Shown here piece after piece: positions 8,926-43,502 of a DNA stretch of 64,000 bases. The stretch is taken from NCBI RefSeq assembly GCF_041886205.1, contig NZ_CP169029.1; one strand, given 5' to 3'. The notes beneath the pieces are model-generated. The model searched no databases, was not told the origin of the DNA, and worked only from the letters and a program-made list of their open reading frames with translations. Every line of letters begins with the position of its first letter. The first letter of the stretch is position 1. The DNA comes from Escherichia coli. Lineage in GTDB: Bacteria > Pseudomonadota > Gammaproteobacteria > Enterobacterales > Enterobacteriaceae. A program made the translations under genes and the position numbers.

Positions 8926-9544
8926 TCCTGATTATACGCACTGCCATGGTGCAACTGCTTCAAATTAAAACTCTGGTCTGACTTCAAATAATTATCATAT
9001 TATTTATTTGCGTAACGGGATATCAGAAAAAGATATTTTCCTCATTAATTTATTAGGATGTTTACATCGGATTTGTGATTAAGCGTGGTATTATTTATTA
9101 GCGAAACGTTTCTCTCTTGATTTTTTGCTCATTCATCAATTTTTCTTATTTTAAATTTTCAATCCCTTTGGGGATTGACTTCTCTTTAGGGTAATTGATA
9201 GCCGTTAACTGACTGTTTTATGAGAAAAAGTGATATAACTTTTTATTCATTGCATAGCAAAAAATGTGATATTGCACGCACTATGTAATAACTTCTCCCA
9301 CTGGCCTGGAACAACTGAACTTATTGAACTATGTTAGAAACTACGCCAGTTTAAGTATCTGCCTGAACTGGCAAGGTTAAGCACAATGATATATCGGCGC
9401 GTATTCCGTTGCATAAGTGTGCAAAAAAAGTGGAAGACGTATCGAGATTTGTGCGTCTGATCGAGACATGTTTAAAAATGGCTTGCCATAATTAACGTTG
9501 TATGTGATAACAGATTTCGGGTTAAACGAGGTACAGTTCTGTTT

Positions 9545-9688
9545 ATGTGTGGCATTTTCAGTAAAGAAGTCCTGAGTAAACACGTTGACGTTGAATACCG
9601 CTTCTCTGCCGAGCCTTATATTGGTGCCTCATGCAGTAATGTGTCAGTTTTATCTATGTTATGCCTGCGGGCGAAGAAAACAATCTAA
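9545..9688 (+). CDS. yobF: small protein YobF (47 aa), co-transcribed with cspC
   Basis: Hand-translated [47 protein letters not shown]; immediately upstream of cspC; coordinates approximate. Confidence 0.7.
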
Positions 9689-9700
9689 GGAATTTTTCAA

Positions 9701-9910
9701 ATGGCAAAGATTAAAGGTCAGGTTAAGTGGTTCAATGAGTCTAAAGGTTTTGGCTTCATTACTCCGGCTGATGGCAGCAAAGACGTGTTCGTACACTTCT
9801 CCGCTATCCAGGGTAATGGCTTCAAAACTCTGGCTGAAGGTCAGAACGTTGAGTTCGAAATTCAGGACGGCCAGAAAGGTCCGGCAGCTGTTAACGTAAC
9901 AGCTATCTGA
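9701..9910 (+). CDS. cspC: cold-shock-like protein CspC
   Basis: ORF track 69 aa; CSD with RNP motifs KGFGFI and VFVHF. Confidence 0.95.
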
Positions 9911-9955
9911 TCGAATCCACTGATCTGAAGTGTGAATACGCTTCAATCTCGCTAT

Positions 9956-9982
9956 AAAGCCTCGTCGAATGCGAGGCTTTTT
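9956..9982 (+). terminator. intrinsic terminator after cspC
   Basis: aagcctcg-tcgaatg-cgaggcttttt hairpin plus T-run. Confidence 0.55.
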
Positions 9983-10075
9983 ACTATGCTTTATCTTCGC
10001 TCCTGGCGTTCGGATATTTGCCCGCCGCGTGATTCGCGTTACACTTGCGGCCTTTAGTATCCTGCCGGAGTTGTC

Positions 10076-34584: not shown

Positions 34585-36270
34585 TTGAAGAAGGTTTGGC
34601 TTAACCGTTATCCCGCGGACGTTCCGACGGAGATCAACCCTGACCGTTATCAATCTCTGGTAGATATGTTTGAGCAGTCGGTCGCGCGCTACGCCGATCA
34701 GCCTGCGTTTGTGAATATGGGGGAGGTGATGACCTTCCGCAAGCTGGAAGAACGCAGTCGCGCGTTTGCCGCTTATTTGCAACAAGGGTTGGGGCTGAAG
34801 AAAGGCGATCGCGTTGCGTTGATGATGCCTAATTTATTGCAATATCCGGTGGCGCTGTTTGGCATTTTGCGTGCCGGGATGATCGTCGTAAACGTTAACC
34901 CGTTGTATACCCCGCGTGAGCTTGAGCATCAGCTTAACGATAGCGGCGCATCGGCGATTGTTATCGTGTCTAACTTTGCTCACACACTGGAAAAAGTGGT
35001 TGATAAAACCGCCGTTCAGCACGTAATTCTGACCCGTATGGGCGATCAGCTATCTACGGCAAAAGGCACGGTAGTCAATTTCGTAGTTAAATACATCAAG
35101 CGTCTGGTGCCGAAATACCATCTGCCAGATGCCATTTCATTTCGTAGCGCCCTGCATAACGGCTACCGGATGCAGTACGTCAAACCCGAACTGGTGCCGG
35201 AAGATTTAGCTTTCCTGCAATACACCGGCGGCACCACTGGTGTGGCGAAAGGCGCGATGCTGACTCACCGCAATATGCTGGCGAACCTGGAACAGGTTAA
35301 CGCGACTTATGGTCCGCTGTTGCATCCGGGCAAAGAGCTGGTGGTGACGGCGCTGCCGCTGTATCACATTTTTGCCCTGACCATTAACTGCCTGCTGTTT
35401 ATCGAACTGGGTGGGCAGAACCTGCTTATCACTAACCCGCGCGATATTCCAGGGTTGGTAAAAGAGTTAGCGAAATATCCGTTTACCGCTATCACTGGCG
35501 TTAACACCTTGTTCAATGCGTTGCTGAACAATAAAGAGTTCCAGCAGCTGGATTTCTCCAGTCTGCATCTTTCCGCAGGCGGTGGGATGCCAGTGCAGCA
35601 AGTGGTGGCAGAGCGTTGGGTGAAACTGACAGGACAGTATCTGCTGGAAGGTTATGGCCTGACCGAGTGTGCGCCGCTGGTTAGCGTTAACCCGTATGAT
35701 ATTGATTATCATAGTGGTAGCATCGGTTTGCCGGTGCCGTCGACGGAAGCCAAACTGGTGGATGACGACGATAATGAAGTACCACCGGGTCAACCGGGTG
35801 AGCTTTGTGTCAAAGGACCGCAGGTGATGCTGGGTTACTGGCAGCGTCCGGATGCTACCGATGAGATCATCAAAAATGGCTGGTTACACACCGGCGACAT
35901 CGCGGTGATGGATGAAGAAGGGTTCCTGCGCATTGTCGATCGTAAAAAAGACATGATTCTGGTTTCCGGTTTTAACGTCTATCCCAACGAGATTGAAGAT
36001 GTCGTCATGCAGCATCCTGGCGTACAGGAAGTCGCGGCTGTTGGCGTACCTTCCGGCTCCAGTGGTGAAGCGGTAAAAATCTTTGTAGTGAAAAAAGATC
36101 CATCGCTTACCGAAGAGTCACTGGTGACTTTTTGCCGCCGTCAGCTCACGGGCTACAAAGTACCGAAGCTGGTGGAGTTTCGTGATGAGTTACCGAAATC
36201 TAACGTCGGAAAAATTTTGCGACGAGAATTACGTGACGAAGCGCGCGGCAAAGTGGACAATAAAGCCTGA
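34585..36270 (+). CDS. fadD: long-chain fatty acid-CoA ligase FadD
   Basis: ORF track 34519..36270; conserved N-terminus (M)[13 protein letters not shown] begins at an in-frame TTG preceded by GAGGTGA SD; AMP-binding motif [12 protein letters not shown]. Confidence 0.9.
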
Positions 36271-36288
36271 GCGTTAAGTCAGTCGTCA

Positions 36289-36315
36289 GACGCCGGTTAA
36301 TCCGGCGTTTTTTTT
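36289..36315 (+). terminator. fadD terminator / hairpin preceding the rnd start
   Basis: gccggttaatccggc hairpin followed by tttttttt, about 25 nt upstream of rnd start codon. Confidence 0.5.
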
Positions 36316-37467: not shown

Positions 37468-37474
37468 AATCTTC

Positions 37475-37517
37475 CGAAGCCGGACTGGGCGCGCTCAGCG
37501 CCACATCCGGCTTCGGC
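37475..37517. terminator. bidirectional terminator between convergent rnd and yeaX
   Basis: ccgaagccgga...tccggcttcgg extended inverted repeat. Confidence 0.45.
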
Positions 37518-37520
37518 AAA

Positions 37521-38486
37521 CTACAAATCCAACACCAGGCGTTTACCCTTCGCACGCGAACAACAGATCAACATACTTTGCTGGCTGGCACGCTCTTCAT
37601 CGCTAAAATATTGATCCCGATGGTCAGCTTCACCTTCCAGTATTGCTGTTTCGCAGGTTCCGCATACCCCTTCACGACATAAACATTCCACTTTCGCGGC
37701 TTTATTATTTTCAATAACCTGCAAAATAGTCATCTCTTCCGGCACCACAAACTCTTTTCCGGAACGGGCAAGCACCAGGGTAAATGCATCGCCGGTTTTG
37801 TCTTCGATAGCAAATTGCTCAAAGTGCAGCGTATCGGCGGCGATGTCCAGACGCGCAGCTTCACTTCTTACCGCTTCAATTAGCGCCTCGGGGCCACAGG
37901 TATAAACGTGTGTGCCAGGTTCGATATCCGCCAATAATCGCGCTAATTCCAGTCGTGTTCCGGTTGATGAATGATGCAAATGGACTTTCTCAGCCTGCGG
38001 ATGCTGGACTAGCTCATCACGAAATGCGCAACTTTCTGGATTTCGCGAGCAGTAATGTAGCTGCCAGTCGACGTCGCTGTGTTGCAGCTCTGCCATGTGC
38101 GACAGGAAAGGGGTGATACCAATACCGCCCGCGATAAACAGATGCTTTCTGGCTGAGGGAATTAGCGCAAACAGGTTATTAGGCGTTGAAATCGTTAACC
38201 GATCGCCCACTTTTACCTGCTGATGCAAAAAGCGGGAACCGCCGCGCGAGTTTTCCTCCAGCCGAACGGCAATCTGATAACAAGAGGTGTCATGCGGCGA
38301 ACTCAGTAGTGAATACGCATTGCTGTACTGGTTATCACCATCGCTCATCTGCACAATGATGTGACTTCCTCCGGTGAACGCAGGCAGCGGTTTGCCATCG
38401 GTTGCCACCAGCGTGAAGCGTTTCACCTGTTCGGTAAGCGGTTCCACCTGACTCACCTGTACTTCAAACATTTGATAGTCTGACAT
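37521..38486 (-). CDS. yeaX: carnitine monooxygenase reductase subunit (ferredoxin-NAD(P) reductase with 2Fe-2S)
   Basis: ORF track 321 aa; FMN/NAD-binding reductase with C-terminal plant-type ferredoxin Cys motif (CREGVCGTCE). Confidence 0.85.
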   Translation of the reverse strand: MSDYQMFEVQVSQVEPLTEQVKRFTLVATDGKPLPAFTGGSHIIVQMSDGDNQYSNAYSLLSSPHDTSCYQIAVRLEENSRGGSRFLHQQVKVGDRLTISTPNNLFALIPSARKHLFIAGGIGITPFLSHMAELQHSDVDWQLHYCSRNPESCAFRDELVQHPQAEKVHLHHSSTGTRLELARLLADIEPGTHVYTCGPEALIEAVRSEAARLDIAADTLHFEQFAIEDKTGDAFTLVLARSGKEFVVPEEMTILQVIENNKAAKVECLCREGVCGTCETAILEGEADHRDQYFSDEERASQQSMLICCSRAKGKRLVLDL

Positions 38487-38541
38487 TGCTGTACTCCATC
38501 AAAAATCAGCCCAGCGGCGGAAAATACCGCCGCCGATGTCA

Positions 38542-39666
38542 TTAGTCCTTAAACACCTGCGCCAGCAGATTATGGAAATGGGCGATACCATGTTCGGAAA
38601 TGACACTACCGCTACTGTCGGCCATGATGCGCCCCTGACCACGATAGCCACGCGATTTCAGCCCTTTCTGTACGCTTTCAACCAGACGTAAATCTTCCGG
38701 ACGGAACACATCGCGATACCACTCAATCAGCGATTTTTGCTCGTCGGTTAACTCTTCATTGGTGAAGTAAATATCGTAGTTTTGCAGGGTAGTTTCAGAA
38801 TCCACCGGGAATTCATAAATGACCGTCATCATCCCTTTGATCGGGGTGACGTTCAGCATCGTGCACGGCCACAGCCAGAAACCGTGGAATGCCGCATCCG
38901 TACCCTCTTCAAATTTAAACGACTGTTCGGACGGTTTGGCGAAACCGTATTGCAGCGTCCAGTTACCGTGCATGGTGTGCCAGTAACGATCAACCTGTAC
39001 GGAGTCGGAGAAACCTGGATGCGCCGGACCACAGTGATAGCACTCGAGATAGTTATCGACAATGTTCTTCCAGTTGGCAGGCGTGCGGGTGGTAAAGCGG
39101 GCCGCCAGTTTCAGATCGTGGACTTCCGGGCAGGCTTCCAGCACTTTCGCGCCCAGACCGGGTAACTGATCTTCTACGCTGGTGGCGTTGGGGTCCATGT
39201 TGATGAAGACGAATCCGGCATATTCTTCCAGACGCACCGGAACCAGTTGCGCTTTGTCGCTATCGAAATTGGCGACGTTTTCGCAGTTACGTGCATGGGC
39301 CAGGTTGCCATCGAGTTTGAATGCCCATGCGTGATACGGGCAGGTAATCACATTTTTTGCTTTTCCTTCACCGCTCAACAACTGATGACCACGGTGCGGA
39401 CACACGTTATAGAACGCGCGCAAAACCTTATCACGACCGCGTACCAGCACGATGCTTTCGCCAATGATCTCACGCGTCACATAATCATTGGCATTCGCCA
39501 GTTCGCTGCTGTGAGCGACGCAAATCCAGCTTTTGGCGAAGACGTTCTCTTTTTCGTGTTCAAACGTGTTCTGATCGGTATAAAAACGGGCAGGAATGGT
39601 CCACGCCTCTTGCGGGTTAGCGCAAAAATTTTCGGGTAGTACAAAGTCAGGGCTCAGATTGCTCAT
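38542..39666 (-). CDS. yeaW: carnitine monooxygenase oxygenase subunit, Rieske non-heme iron protein
   Basis: ORF track 38542..39786; start moved to MSNLSPDFVLPENF giving 374 aa; Rieske motif CVAH...CPYHAW region (CPHRGHQL / CPYHAWAF). Confidence 0.85.
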   Translation of the reverse strand: MSNLSPDFVLPENFCANPQEAWTIPARFYTDQNTFEHEKENVFAKSWICVAHSSELANANDYVTREIIGESIVLVRGRDKVLRAFYNVCPHRGHQLLSGEGKAKNVITCPYHAWAFKLDGNLAHARNCENVANFDSDKAQLVPVRLEEYAGFVFINMDPNATSVEDQLPGLGAKVLEACPEVHDLKLAARFTTRTPANWKNIVDNYLECYHCGPAHPGFSDSVQVDRYWHTMHGNWTLQYGFAKPSEQSFKFEEGTDAAFHGFWLWPCTMLNVTPIKGMMTVIYEFPVDSETTLQNYDIYFTNEELTDEQKSLIEWYRDVFRPEDLRLVESVQKGLKSRGYRGQGRIMADSSGSVISEHGIAHFHNLLAQVFKD

Positions 39667-39697
39667 AGGGATACCTTTATCGTTAGGATGATGGCGC

Positions 39698-41143
39698 TCA
39701 GTTGTCGCCTTTGAATACGGTTCCCGCAGGGAGCACTGGCGTTTTTTCCAGGGCTTCAACCGGTGTCTGCGGGAGATAATGTTCAACTTGATGAGCCGGA
39801 ATGTCGGCGTAATCCTGTTTCAGCCAGCGAATAAATCCGCCGACTTTCACCAGTAAAATGACGAGGAAGGGAAGGGCTGTGAGCACGACGGTGGTTTTCA
39901 TCGTTTCCAGCGAAGCACCGGTAAACAAGATGGAAAGCGGGATCAGAGTGATCACCACGCACCAGAAAAGACGCAGCCCACGGTCAGGATCGTCACCTTC
40001 CTGGAGATTACGCGTACTGGTCGCAGCCATGGTGTAGGCCACCGCATCCATATGCGAGGCAAGGAAAATAATCATCACGCCCAGGTATGCGGCGAAGAAC
40101 AATTTACCGGCTGGCAACGACATCAGAACTTGCTGCACAGCTGTTTCGCCGCCCAGTGTTTCCAGCACCTGTGGGACGTTGATTACGCCATTGATAAACT
40201 GATGAATGGCATAGCTTTCCATTACGCCAAAGAAGAACCAGCAACCGACGGTGCTGCCGAGGATCAGTCCCCAGATAACTTCTTTAATCTTACGACCGCG
40301 GGAAACGCGGGTGACAAACATTGCTACGCCAGGGGTGTATGAGATCCACCACAGCCAGTAGAAAACGGTCCAGTTGCGGGTAAATGAACCATCGCCAAGC
40401 GGATCGGTGAATAAGCTCATTTGCAGGAAGTTTTGCGTGGTCAGGCCGATGGCATTGATGATGCTGTTGGTAATAAATTCGGTTGGGCCGACAATCAGCA
40501 CCAGTAATGGCAGCAGGAACGCGCCCCAGCCAACCATTTTGCTCAGACGTTGCAAACCGTTGTTGATACCAATCCACGAGCTTAGGCAAAAAATGCCGCC
40601 GGAAAGCAGGATCACAAATGCCTGCACGGTGAAGTTATCGGGTAAACCGGTCAGCGCGGAAAGTCCACGAGTAAAGGTTGCTGCGGTAACAACAAGGGAA
40701 ATGGTCAGTGCGCCGACAGTGGCGATCAGGAACATCAAATCGACCAGTTTTCCCCATGGGCCTTGCGGGCGAACGCCGGTAATAGCAGCAATAATGCCGG
40801 AAAGGCTCAGACCTTTGTTTTTCCGCACATGAAAGTGATAAGCCATGATTAATGAGGCCAGCGTATAAGTTGCCCAGGCGCTGATGCCCCAGTGGAAGAA
40901 AGAGTAGGGAACGCTAAATTCGAGTGCCTGTTGTGAACGCGGTGCGATATTTAATCCAGGCGTTTGATAATAATAGGCCCATTCAGCAACCCCCCAATAA
41001 AGCGTAGAAGAACCTAAACCGGCACAAATAAACATAAACAGCCAGGAGAGCGTGCTGTATTCCGGTTTTCCTTCGCCAAGACGAATATTGCCGTATTTAC
41101 TGGTGGCTAAATAAATCACCAGTCCCATTGCCAGCAAAACCAA
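39698..41143 (-). CDS. yeaV: BCCT-family transporter YeaV
   Basis: ORF track 481 aa, TTG start; polytopic, Trp-rich BCCT signature region. Confidence 0.85.
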
Positions 41144-41283
41144 TACCTGTACGGCGGAACCTAACGTACGCGTAACAAAATTTGCATGTTACATAAATTA
41201 AACAATTAAGAATACGGAAAGCCATAAAACACGAAACGGAAACAATAAAAGGTGAAATGACGCAGGTTATTTACTGCAAAGAA

Positions 41284-41312
41284 CGAATAAAAAAACCGCG
41301 TCAGTGACGCGG
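41284..41312 (-). terminator. intrinsic terminator after dmlA
   Basis: Minus strand aaccgcgtcactgacgcggttttttt. Confidence 0.5.
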
Positions 41313-41333
41313 TTCAAATAAACTGGTTTGACC

Positions 41334-42419
41334 TTAACGCAAAATAATTTTGCAAATCGCGTCGGCAACCTGTGGCGTGGTGGCATTGCCTTTCATATCA
41401 GGTGTTTTCGGCCCGTGAGCAATCACTTCTTCAATTGCTGCCAGAATACCGTTATGCGCTTGCTGGAAACGCTCATCGCCATTGCCGAGAAAATCGAGCA
41501 TCATTGCCCCGGCCCAAATCGTGGCGATAGGGTTAGCAATATTTTTCCCGTAGATATCCGGCGCGGAACCGTGGACAGGCTCGAAGAGCGACGGGAAAGT
41601 GCGTTCCGGATTCAGGTTGGCGGATGGGGCAATGCCAATGGTGCCGGTGCAGGCCGGGCCAAGATCGGAAAGGATATCGCCAAACAAATTGGACGCCACC
41701 ACCACATCGAAGCGTTCCGGCTGCATCACAAAACGCGCGCAGAGAATATCAATATGCTGCTTGTCCCAGCGGATCTCCGGGTAATTCTCGGCCATTGCTT
41801 CCACTCGCTCATCCCAGTACGGCATGCTGATGGCTAAACCGTTCGATTTAGTGGCAGAAGTTAGCGTCTTACGTGGGCGGCTTTGCGCAAGTTCGAAGGC
41901 ATAACGCAAAATGCGATCGACACCACGACGCGTAAATACCGATTCCTGAATGACGACTTCATGCTCTGTACCTTCATTCACTCTACCGCCGAGCGAGGAA
42001 TATTCGCCTTCGGTGTTTTCCCTGACCACGTAAAAATCGATGTCGCCAGGCTGTTTTCCCGCCAGCGGGCAGGGAACGCCAGGAAAGAGACGAACCGGGC
42101 GCAGGTTGACGTACTGGTCGAATTCACGACGAAATTTCAGCAGCGAACCCCACAACGAAATATGGTCCGGAACGGTATCCGGCCAGCCGACGGCACCAAA
42201 ATAGATGGCGTCGAAACGGCTAAGTTGCTCATGCCAGTCGTCCGGCATCATTTTACCGTGATGGCTGTAATACTCGCAGCTCGCCCACTCCATTTGCTCA
42301 AAACTCAAGGCGAAGCCCCAGCGCTCAGCGGCAGCCTGTAACACGCGAATCCCTTCAGGAAGGACTTCTTTGCCAATCCCGTCTCCCGGGATCGCAGCAA
42401 TACGCATCGTTTTCATCAT
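41334..42419 (-). CDS. dmlA: D-malate / 3-isopropylmalate dehydrogenase (decarboxylating)
   Basis: ORF track 361 aa; isocitrate/isopropylmalate dehydrogenase family. Confidence 0.9.
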   Translation of the reverse strand: MMKTMRIAAIPGDGIGKEVLPEGIRVLQAAAERWGFALSFEQMEWASCEYYSHHGKMMPDDWHEQLSRFDAIYFGAVGWPDTVPDHISLWGSLLKFRREFDQYVNLRPVRLFPGVPCPLAGKQPGDIDFYVVRENTEGEYSSLGGRVNEGTEHEVVIQESVFTRRGVDRILRYAFELAQSRPRKTLTSATKSNGLAISMPYWDERVEAMAENYPEIRWDKQHIDILCARFVMQPERFDVVVASNLFGDILSDLGPACTGTIGIAPSANLNPERTFPSLFEPVHGSAPDIYGKNIANPIATIWAGAMMLDFLGNGDERFQQAHNGILAAIEEVIAHGPKTPDMKGNATTPQVADAICKIILR

Positions 42420-42521
42420 TGGGTTCTCACTTCCTGACCATCAAAATTGACAACATCACCATCCTATAATTGACTGAAAAGGAATTAATCCCCGTAACTG
42501 GTGAAACATAAAACACGAATC

Positions 42522-43445
42522 ATGAATAATTTACCGCTGCTGAATGATTTGCGCGTCTTTATGCTGGTGGCTCGCCGGGCTGGTTTTGCCGCCGTGGCGG
42601 AAGAACTGGGCGTTTCACCGGCGTTCGTCAGCAAGCGCATCGCCTTGCTGGAGCAAACGCTAAACGTGGTGTTGTTACACCGCACCACCCGCCGCGTCAC
42701 CATTACCGAAGAAGGAGAGCGGATTTATGAATGGGCGCAGCGGATTTTGCAGGATGTCGGTCAGATGATGGACGAACTTTCTGACGTGCGTCAGGTGCCG
42801 CAGGGGATGCTGCGTATTATCAGCAGCTTTGGTTTTGGACGACAGGTGGTGGCTCCGGCGTTATCAGCGCTGGCGAAGGCGTATCCGCAACTGGAATTAC
42901 GTTTTGATGTGGAAGACCGACTGGTCGATTTGGTCAATGAAGGTGTCGATCTCGATATTCGCATTGGCGATGACATCGCCCCTAATTTAATCGCCCGCAA
43001 ACTGGCGACCAATTACCGTATTCTCTGCGCGTCGCCGGAATTTATTGCGCAACATGGCGCGCCGAAACATTTAACCGATCTTTCTGCATTGCCGTGCCTG
43101 GTCATTAAAGAGCGCGATCATCCTTTTGGTGTCTGGCAATTACGCAATAAAGAAGGCCCCCATGCGATTAAAGTCACCGGCCCACTGTCGTCTAATCATG
43201 GAGAAATTGTCCATCAGTGGTGTCTCGATGGGCAGGGGATTGCTCTGCGTTCCTGGTGGGATGTTAGCGAAAACATTGCCAGTGGTCATTTAGTGCAAGT
43301 GCTACCGGAATATTACCAGCCAGCGAACGTCTGGGCCGTTTATGTTTCAAGGCTGGCGACGTCAGCGAAAGTGCGGATAACGGTAGAATTTTTACGCCAG
43401 TATTTTGCCGAGCACTACCCGAATTTTTCACTGGAGCATGCCTGA
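42522..43445 (+). CDS. dmlR: LysR-family regulator DmlR
   Basis: ORF track 42501..43445; start moved to MNNLPLLNDLRVF; LysR HTH; divergent from dmlA. Confidence 0.85.
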   Translation: MNNLPLLNDLRVFMLVARRAGFAAVAEELGVSPAFVSKRIALLEQTLNVVLLHRTTRRVTITEEGERIYEWAQRILQDVGQMMDELSDVRQVPQGMLRIISSFGFGRQVVAPALSALAKAYPQLELRFDVEDRLVDLVNEGVDLDIRIGDDIAPNLIARKLATNYRILCASPEFIAQHGAPKHLTDLSALPCLVIKERDHPFGVWQLRNKEGPHAIKVTGPLSSNHGEIVHQWCLDGQGIALRSWWDVSENIASGHLVQVLPEYYQPANVWAVYVSRLATSAKVRITVEFLRQYFAEHYPNFSLEHA

Positions 43446-43502
43446 TTAATGATTCAATTATCGGGTTGATATCAGGTTAAAACCTGATTTTCTCCTTTCT
43501 AA

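Follow-up and report, generated by a model that had tools for sequence, protein, structure and literature searches.

The DNA analysed here is a 64-kb window (a term used below for the whole stretch) from an Escherichia coli chromosome, and the subject of this report is a run of five genes within it, yeaX, yeaW, yeaV, dmlA and dmlR, whose positions (Table 1) agree with those of an initial annotation made from the sequence alone. That annotation had divided the genes into two adjacent modules, a transport-plus-oxygenase set for carnitine and a set for D-malate catabolism. We place the probability at roughly three in four that they belong instead to a single conserved L-carnitine catabolic cluster in its Escherichia version, represented in this genome by a decayed allele of the K-12 type. 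In relatives that possess an intact cluster, the BCCT transporter YeaV would bring carnitine into the cell, and YeaW and YeaX, the equivalents of CntA and CntB, would use O2 and NADH to convert it to trimethylamine (TMA) and malic semialdehyde. A cluster-encoded malic semialdehyde dehydrogenase (MSA-DH) would then generate D-malate, which DmlA (Mdh) would decarboxylate to pyruvate, with expression of the pathway controlled by the divergently transcribed LysR-type regulator DmlR (CarR). Decay appears to have taken place in three stages: the loss of msadh in an Escherichia ancestor, a 225-bp deletion at the start of yeaV in a lineage that includes K-12 and BL21(DE3), and, in this genome, the substitution G355V in YeaW.

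The unity of the cluster is most apparent from its gene order. Neighbouring genes were placed by tblastn at 80 genomic loci encoding YeaW relatives, and in about 60 of the 80 genomes they follow the order DmlR<, DmlA>, YeaV>, (Hyd>), YeaW>, (MSADH>), YeaX>, the genes in parentheses being optional. Taxa with this order include Escherichia, Citrobacter, Yersinia, Xenorhabdus, Serratia, Pseudomonas, Acinetobacter, Psychrobacter, Neisseriaceae and Vitreoscilla; in Paraburkholderia the cluster is rearranged. The biochemistry of the pathway has been described: CntAB converts L-carnitine to TMA and malic semialdehyde, MSA-DH oxidizes the latter stereospecifically to D-malate, and Mdh/DmlA yields pyruvate (Piskol 2024, PMC11353897). 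Because synteny is conserved and the D-malate derived from L-carnitine is the substrate of DmlA, the carnitine and D-malate sets are best regarded, from gene order and sequence, as one conserved cluster encoding one pathway, a conclusion that is sound and already published. The division into two modules is replaced accordingly by this published pathway and its conserved gene order.

It is very improbable that the region consists of two independent, intact accessory modules, one for carnitine and one for D-malate, that merely lie side by side. Such an arrangement would account for the observation that dmlA has a strong terminator of its own and yeaV a promoter-like region of its own, which makes them separate transcription units in Enterobacterales, and for the study of DmlA and DmlR in E. 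coli as a D-malate system in its own right, with DmlA as a generalist enzyme (work cited in passages of PMC11353897). It is already contradicted, however, by the linkage of dmlR-dmlA to the carnitine genes in the same order in both Gamma- and Betaproteobacteria, and the breakdown of carnitine yields D-malate stereospecifically (PMC11353897). Moreover, all five genes have been lost together in about 20% of E. coli genomes, the same rare sequence box stands at the same spacing at both promoters, and yeaV is not intact, as described below.

The Acinetobacter baumannii operon (carR, mdh, bcct/Aci01347, hyd, cntA, msadh, cntB) has the same gene order and orientation, with five orthologues in E. coli, and the same chemistry is expected of both, namely conversion of carnitine to TMA and malic semialdehyde and of D-malate to pyruvate. 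Identities to the A. calcoaceticus locus are 45% for DmlR, 72% for DmlA, 54% for YeaV, 73% for YeaW (to the CntA orthologue) and 51% for YeaX. Unlike the A. baumannii operon, the E. coli cluster is without hyd and msadh and, in the present allele, has a truncated transporter gene. Furthermore, the Enterobacterales loci have a terminator and a second promoter that separate dmlA from yeaVWX, whereas the corresponding gap in A. calcoaceticus is only 50 nt, and laboratory E. coli does not grow on carnitine (PMC11353897).

CntA and YeaW belong to the group V Rieske oxygenases. YeaW contains the Pfam domains Rieske and Ring_hydroxyl_A and aligns over residues 4-371 with the solved structure of A. 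baumannii CntA (6y8j; E = 1.7e-195). When compared with the reference list of CntA residues (PMC7948474), YeaW was found to possess the Rieske ligands C89, H91, C109 and H112 (C86, H88, C106 and H109 in CntA), the iron triad H211, H216 and D325 (H208, H213 and D323), the bridging glutamate E208 that replaces an aspartate (E205), the substrate residues Y206, Y228, F260, Y297 and F321 (Y203, Y225, F258, Y295 and F319) and the cysteine pair C209/C212 (Cys206/Cys209). The substrate residues of CntA recognize the quaternary amine, Y203 by a pi-cation interaction (PMC7948474). YeaX comprises a flavin/NADH part (FAD_binding_6 and NAD_binding_1) and a C-terminal plant-type 2Fe-2S domain (Fer2), is 51-52% identical to Acinetobacter CntB, and keeps all four cluster ligands, C270-x4-C275-x2-C278...C308, as assigned in PMC9508527. 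The conservation of every listed CntA residue, together with that of the domains and ligands of YeaX, indicates that the two proteins are the subunits of a carnitine monooxygenase. The identity proposed in the initial annotation therefore stands; the observations that it named as counter-evidence, loss of Rieske or iron ligands in YeaW or a lack of similarity to CntAB, were checked for and neither was seen. YeaW and YeaX of K-12/KO11FL are active in vitro, where they form TMA in a carnitine-dependent manner (PMC9508527).

The YeaW protein of the window differs from the K-12/KO11FL protein assayed in vitro at two positions, A34T and G355V. The first lies at a variable column and is common to E. 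coli strain 6EVA. The second falls within an otherwise invariant S-G-x-S-E-H-G motif, at a position that is glycine in all 81 orthologues (81/81), that of 6EVA included. A 71-bp segment around codon 355 has no exact match in 4,370 E. coli genomes, the best being one mismatch away, and no mutagenesis of G355 or structural comment on it was found in the literature. G355V may be genuine and confined to this strain, which would be in keeping with relaxed selection on an operon that was already crippled.

DmlA and DmlR are both present and intact, and they are divergently transcribed as the initial annotation had proposed. DmlA scores 565 bits against TIGR02089 (cut-off 470.4; residues 2-358), belongs to the Pfam family Iso_dh and is orthologous to Mdh, which the carnitine operon of Acinetobacter encodes. 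DmlR consists of an N-terminal HTH_1 domain and a LysR_substrate domain, is 45-76% identical to the regulators that occupy the same position in other genera, and has CarR as its orthologue in the Acinetobacter operon (PMC11353897). As both genes are intact and DmlA is identical to the K-12 protein, the use of D-malate should be normal.

A gene for MSA-DH is absent from the cluster of all Escherichia, in which yeaW and yeaX are separated by a gap of 55 nt; in Citrobacter, Pseudomonas and Acinetobacter msadh occupies this position. The absence of both hyd and msadh from E. coli has been reported (PMC11353897), and we found no hyd gene between the transporter gene and yeaW in any Enterobacterales locus. 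In Citrobacter the cluster is located beside rnd, as it is in E. coli; DmlR, DmlA, YeaV and YeaW are 88-94% identical to their E. coli counterparts and YeaX 73-79%, and the promoter elements described below have the same layout. The Citrobacter cluster differs in that many species keep msadh and that yeaV is full length in all of them. In several species msadh lies between yeaW and yeaX at this same site and encodes an enzyme 62-64% identical to that of Acinetobacter. The yeaW-yeaX spacer of Escherichia aligns with the msadh-yeaX spacer of Citrobacter over a GC-rich hairpin, a T run and the yeaX Shine-Dalgarno sequence, and the stem of the hairpin is kept in both genera with two-sided changes at 2 of its 7 pairs. 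This hairpin is thus best explained, by sequence comparison, as the remnant of the msadh-yeaX spacer after loss of msadh. A separate deletion of msadh has occurred in the sublineage of C. portucalensis and C. youngae ATCC 29220 (L013-L015, L075), in which the last ~12 nt of the gene remain (…GGCTGTAA) and the spacer is 70-71 nt in length as opposed to 55 nt in Escherichia. Yersinia and Serratia lack the gene as well, as do some Xenorhabdus. With 62-65% identity to the MSA-DH encoded in such clusters (an observation also made in PMC11353897), E. coli GabD would be the obvious stand-in for the lost enzyme.

The repeated loss of msadh raises a different possibility, proposed by Piskol et al. for clusters without msadh and/or mdh (PMC11353897): that in these lineages the cluster is kept for a role other than catabolism, such as the trimming of intracellular carnitine pools that serve as compatible solute. 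Free-standing use of D-malate or tartrate would exist alongside this role, and the yeaV deletion would be one more neutral step. The independent losses in Escherichia and part of Citrobacter, and the absence of the gene in Yersinia, Serratia and part of Xenorhabdus, in each case with the other genes kept, are consistent with such a role. On the other hand, dmlA stays linked to the carnitine genes in all of these lineages, as would be expected if D-malate were still the product and a housekeeping enzyme of the GabD type stood in for MSA-DH, and osmolyte trimming is without direct evidence. We consider this explanation quite unlikely.

The initial annotation had taken yeaV for an intact transport component, a view that does not survive inspection of its 5' end. 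The predicted product belongs to the Pfam family BCCT and, at 967.5 bits, is above the cut-off of 647 for NCBIfam NF007412, of whose 536 positions only 56-536 are matched; PGAP, in the annotation of strain 6EVA, calls the gene a pseudogene, 'incomplete, missing N-terminus'. Alignment with O157:H7 strain F7386, whose YeaV is 536 aa long, revealed a single clean 225-bp gap, in which the first 43 codons are missing together with 96 bp in front of the ATG. Gone with this DNA are the ATG itself, the ribosome-binding site (RBS), the first transmembrane helix (TM1, residues 12-30) and the leader, as well as the predicted transcription start and the 3' half of the -10 hexamer. The longest remaining open reading frame (ORF), of 481 aa, starts at TTG 41143 inside the second helix (TM2, residues 49-67) and is preceded by no good Shine-Dalgarno sequence; an in-frame TAA at 41191-41189, just beyond the end of the homology, makes a longer yeaV product impossible. 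Since the solved BCCT structures align with full-length YeaV from residue 16, TM1 belongs to the fold, and the YeaV of the window does not possess the full-length 12-helix architecture with its own start codon and RBS. The complete N-terminus is present in E. albertii, Escherichia sp. E1V33, E. coli E69, Citrobacter and more distant genera; as all outgroups have full-length yeaV, the deletion is the derived state. A repeat-mediated origin of the deletion was considered and rejected, as junction microhomology is at most 1 nt and the flanking 20-mers agree at 11 of 20 positions; we claim no repeat-mediated mechanism. In strain BS-04 the length difference at the deletion site is 212 bp rather than 225 bp.

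The same deletion is present in K-12, whose dmlR-dmlA-yeaV-yeaW-yeaX region (b1799-b1803) is 99.6% identical to the window at the DNA level over 6.1 kb. At the protein level the two differ only by A34T and G355V in YeaW, the latter not in K-12, V43I in YeaX, L350F in YeaV and L115S in DmlR. V43I and L115S, each the common state among orthologues, and L350F, which lies at a variable column, are not signs of decay. RefSeq lists the K-12 MG1655 gene (NC_000913.3, 1883188-1884633) as an intact 481-aa 'putative transporter' with a TTG start, so that one and the same yeaV allele is intact in the K-12 RefSeq record and a pseudogene under PGAP in other genomes.

The deletion starts inside the -10 hexamer of the probable yeaV promoter and leaves 33 nt before TTG 41143. 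A scan for consensus sigma-70 promoters detected none in the DNA preceding yeaV, whether that of the window or that of the intact O157 allele; the arrangement TTGTTT-17-AATAAT falls below the 4-of-6 rule of the scan and was seen only by cross-genus comparison. Upstream of yeaV, 27 of 27 Enterobacterales loci have a 9-mer box core, a -35-like hexamer, a spacer of exactly 17 nt and a -10-like hexamer. Except in one Xenorhabdus, where the distance is 37 nt, the box core is 27-28 nt from the -35 hexamer (26 loci), and TTGTTT is paired with AATAAT or TATATT at 23; Yersinia has the -10 sequence GATACT, and in Serratia the pair is TTGTGG and CACACT. Between the -10 hexamer and the ATG there are from 92 to 234 nt across these loci. 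The fixed spacing of the elements, combined with a leader of variable length, gives the appearance of a real activator-dependent promoter. In the intact allele, the 93-nt yeaV leader (O157:H7, L002 4810-4905) contains two small hairpins, CTGGCAAAAGCCAG and GGGCTTTTATGCCC, just before the Shine-Dalgarno sequence. In Citrobacter the second hairpin persists although its sequence, GGGCGACGACGCCC, differs, and the predicted transcription start is surrounded by a conserved TTGTTAA block.

The box upstream of yeaV links this promoter to that of dmlA. Its 11-mer form, box A (CGTGTTTTATG), occurs exactly twice in the window as against 0.03 occurrences expected, both times on the minus strand, once upstream of yeaV and once in the dmlR-dmlA intergenic region. 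Upstream of dmlA, box A is followed after 27-28 nt by a -35-like hexamer (TTAATT, TTGAAT or TTGATT) and, after a further 16-17 nt, by TAGGAT or TAAGAT (TAGGAT in the window). From this shared layout we infer that one activator serves the dmlA and yeaV promoters, and the evidence suggests that DmlR is most likely this activator, with box A as a candidate DmlR operator that would place both under common control. CarR, the Acinetobacter orthologue of DmlR, binds the equivalent intergenic region in a carnitine-dependent manner, according to the account of Breisch 2022 in PMC11353897. A copy of box A at K-12 gabD or sad would have tied a trans-acting MSA-DH to the regulon; neither GTGTTTTAT nor a relaxed match was present in either 8-kb region. 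The possibility that box A or the -35/-10 spacer is a CRP site was likewise rejected, as half-sites and spacing do not fit TGTGA-N6-TCACA.

The initial annotation had described the intrinsic terminators of the region as clean, and this holds in part. The terminator of dmlA is canonical, with a 10-bp stem and seven T (z = -3.9), and separates dmlA from the yeaVWX transcription unit; that of dmlR is weaker (z = -2.2). The GC-rich structure in the yeaW-yeaX spacer (38536-38511; -26.2 kcal/mol with flanks, z = -5.1 relative to shuffled controls) lies inside the operon and is not a canonical terminator, because 5 nt separate its T run from the stem. Finally, rnd and yeaX share a compound hairpin between their convergent ends (-36.6 kcal/mol, z = -7.0), which is followed on the minus strand by AAGAUUUU and is the probable transcript end for yeaX.

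Table 1. Positions in the window of the five genes, their regulatory elements and the sites of decay.
Feature	Coordinates	Strand	Description
yeaX	37521-38486	-	CntB-type reductase of carnitine monooxygenase, intact
yeaW	38542-39666	-	CntA-type Rieske oxygenase subunit, 374 aa from ATG
yeaW codon 355	38602-38604	-	GTC (Val); private G355V in S-G-x-S-E-H-G motif
yeaV homology	39698-41179	-	BCCT transporter gene, 5' end missing; longest ORF 39698-41143
yeaV deletion junction	41181/41180	-	225 bp gone relative to intact allele (O157:H7, E. albertii, Citrobacter)
yeaV promoter remnant	41177-41205	-	-35 TTGTTT at 41205-41200, 17-nt spacer, former -10 AATAAT now AATTTT at 41182-41177
box A, copy 1	41223-41233	-	27 nt upstream of yeaV -35; candidate operator for activator
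dmlA	41334-42419	-	Decarboxylating D-malate (tartrate/3-isopropylmalate) dehydrogenase, intact
box A, copy 2	42507-42517	-	dmlR-dmlA intergenic region, just upstream of dmlR ATG
dmlR	42522-43445	+	LysR-type regulator, divergent from dmlA, intact
rnd/yeaX compound hairpin	37474-37516	.	Between convergent genes
yeaW-yeaX spacer hairpin	38511-38536	-	GC-rich
dmlA intrinsic terminator	41293-41315	-	Conserved in Citrobacter
dmlR terminator-like hairpin	43471-43488	+	Weak, with T run

The loss of half of the -10 hexamer, the transcription start, the leader and the start and TM1 of YeaV, downstream of the strong dmlA terminator, leads to the expectation of little native yeaWX expression and no proper YeaV protein. 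On this basis uptake through YeaV and native expression of yeaVWX would be crippled, such that the strain would have kept the use of D-malate and lost the catabolism of carnitine. Published phenotypes of laboratory strains are consistent with this prediction. None of BL21, B and K12 grows on carnitine, CntA activity is absent from an extract of BL21, and examination of public expression data by the same authors revealed no substantial cntA transcription (PMC11353897). Among the strains tested for growth on carnitine, we confirmed the deletion in K-12 and BL21(DE3); the name yeaV does not occur in PMC11353897. In O157 Sakai, yeaV and yeaW increase about 2-fold on entry into stationary phase (PMC2241611), and the intact allele is known for another O157:H7 strain, F7386. 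A '+' for TMA formation recorded for K12 DSM 10517 in PMC6200775 was traced to Rath 2017, where the strain served only as DNA standard for quantitative PCR, and is not phenotypic evidence.

Several observations weigh against a crippled carnitine pathway under DmlR control. The residual promoter TTGTTT-17-AATTTT keeps positions A2 and T6 of the -10 hexamer and might still fire. The core of the BCCT fold, ten helices, is retained by the 481-aa YeaV, extracellular carnitine was reported to fall slightly when K-12 yeaV was overexpressed (PMC10971958), and another transporter such as CaiT or ProP could import carnitine in its place. The absence of msadh from all E. coli may alone explain the failure to grow on carnitine, and G355V may be a sequencing error. 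With respect to regulation, CRP was predicted to bind near yeaV by genomic SELEX (systematic evolution of ligands by exponential enrichment; PMC3105977).

Taken further, some of these points would lead to a cluster that still works, in which the 481-aa YeaV or another transporter imports carnitine, the residual promoter or read-through from dmlA provides expression, TMA is made, and GabD oxidizes malic semialdehyde. The reading frames of YeaW and YeaX are unbroken and encode every ligand, activity in vitro is known for the K-12 proteins (PMC9508527), depletion of carnitine accompanied the overexpression of K-12 yeaV (PMC10971958), GabD resembles MSA-DH at 62-65% identity, and the yeaV -35 and half of its -10 are retained. 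Nevertheless, TM1, half of TM2, the RBS and the ATG are gone, TTG 41143 is not preceded by a good Shine-Dalgarno sequence, the dmlA terminator is strong, and YeaW carries G355V at an invariant glycine; the inactivity of BL21 extract, the lack of substantial cntA transcription and the failure of BL21, B and K12 to grow on carnitine (PMC11353897) point in the same direction. A functioning pathway in this strain is therefore unlikely, and we retain the conclusion that the window holds a decayed allele of the conserved L-carnitine cluster.

The frequency of this allele was estimated over 5,426 complete E. coli genomes, in which the deletion allele was counted by subtraction. At least 80% of a 7-kb segment spanning the cluster was present in 4,365 of these genomes, the cluster carriers, and the 225-bp piece was present in 2,931, leaving the deletion allele in ~1,430 genomes, or about one third of carriers. 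Evenly spaced samples of the hit list, with the deletion in 10 of 32 and 13 of 39 rows, agree with this estimate. In ~1,060 genomes the cluster is almost wholly gone. The locus is thus polymorphic in the species, with ~54% of genomes containing the intact cluster (still without msadh), ~26% the deletion and ~20% having lost nearly the whole cluster. Deletion carriers confirmed individually are K-12 MG1655, HMS174, JM83, BL21(DE3) and Nico21(DE3), and the deletion also occurs in isolates from humans, pigs, chickens and seawater. In cluster-less genomes the remnants are 24 bp of yeaX, 37 bp at the dmlA 3' end and terminator, a 173-bp central piece of dmlA and 168 bp of the dmlR 3' end; because only fragments of yeaX, dmlA and dmlR remain, all five genes have decayed together. 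In one such strain, EcPF7 (L003 3469-3884), the locus is a four-fragment patchwork made by three separate deletions, in which the dmlA fragments are 86-92% identical to the window and the yeaX-side and dmlR-side pieces 95-98%, which suggests old, stepwise decay. Two matches to the 7-kb segment were on records labelled as plasmids.

The abundance of cntA serves as a proxy for the TMA that arises from carnitine, and this metabolite has been linked to cardiovascular risk. E. coli accounts for nearly all cntA sequences in human gut samples (PMC5433236), about 98% of gut counts being E. coli-like. We raise the tentative possibility, with the odds against it, that the 'silent' state of E. coli cntA is in part an artefact of laboratory strains. 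Strains with intact yeaV, approximately two thirds of carriers and including O157:H7, would in that case run a DmlR regulon that responds to D-malate or carnitine, in which box A couples the two promoters, carnitine is converted to TMA and by way of D-malate to pyruvate, and GabD replaces MSA-DH, while strains of the K-12 and B types, to which growth tests with carnitine have been confined, fail because the 225-bp deletion took away the -10 hexamer, the leader and the 5' end of yeaV. If this were true, counts of cntA in the gut would have to be split by yeaV allele in order to predict TMA potential. K-12 and BL21(DE3), both confirmed carriers of the deletion, are among the strains from which it was concluded that the pathway is neither expressed nor used in E. 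coli, and the yeaV allele offers a testable reason for the weak correlation of cntA abundance with trimethylamine N-oxide. The listing of K-12 reference yeaV as an intact gene is an annotation problem that deserves to be flagged. The genes, enzymes, pathway and orthology are already published, and nothing here is mechanistically new. The 225-bp deletion with its breakpoint in the -10 hexamer, its frequency, the shared box, the repeated msadh losses and G355V were not found in the literature searched; these are useful to the TMA field and not surprising in kind.

A second carnitine system of E. coli, caiTABCDE/fix, also includes a BCCT transporter, CaiT, which is the second-closest relative of YeaV among solved structures (E = 4e-70). 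It is encoded elsewhere in the genome and acts anaerobically, converting carnitine to gamma-butyrobetaine via CoA esters, and involves no oxygenase, TMA or D-malate.

The closest genome to the window is that of E. coli strain 6EVA, 99.9% identical over the 7-kb query from rnd to leuE, in which the genes are annotated as rnd, yeaX ('carnitine monooxygenase reductase subunit'), yeaW ('oxygenase subunit'), yeaV ('BCCT family transporter'), dmlA, dmlR and leuE. Some part of this query, which includes the rnd and leuE flanks, was matched in 5,425 of the 5,426 complete genomes. The G+C content across the cluster is 47-54%, ordinary for E. coli, which argues against a recently acquired island, and the presence of the same cluster beside rnd in E. 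albertii and Citrobacter indicates that it is part of the ancestral backbone. The gaps between genes are 31 nt for yeaV-yeaW and 53 nt for the convergent pair rnd-yeaX. A 414-aa version of yeaW with a TTG start, taken from the ORF list, is spurious, the true start being the ATG at 39666. An Rfam scan of 37521-43445 detected no RNA family at gathering score. Just upstream of the cluster, the small RNA sroD (RF00370, 115 bits) was located at 36229-36314 on the plus strand, at the 3' end of fadD and in the fadD-rnd spacer. Elsewhere in the window, at 9525-9985 on the plus strand, a match to the cspA-type thermoregulator 5' untranslated region (RF01766, 132.9 bits) probably belongs to a cold-shock-protein paralogue.

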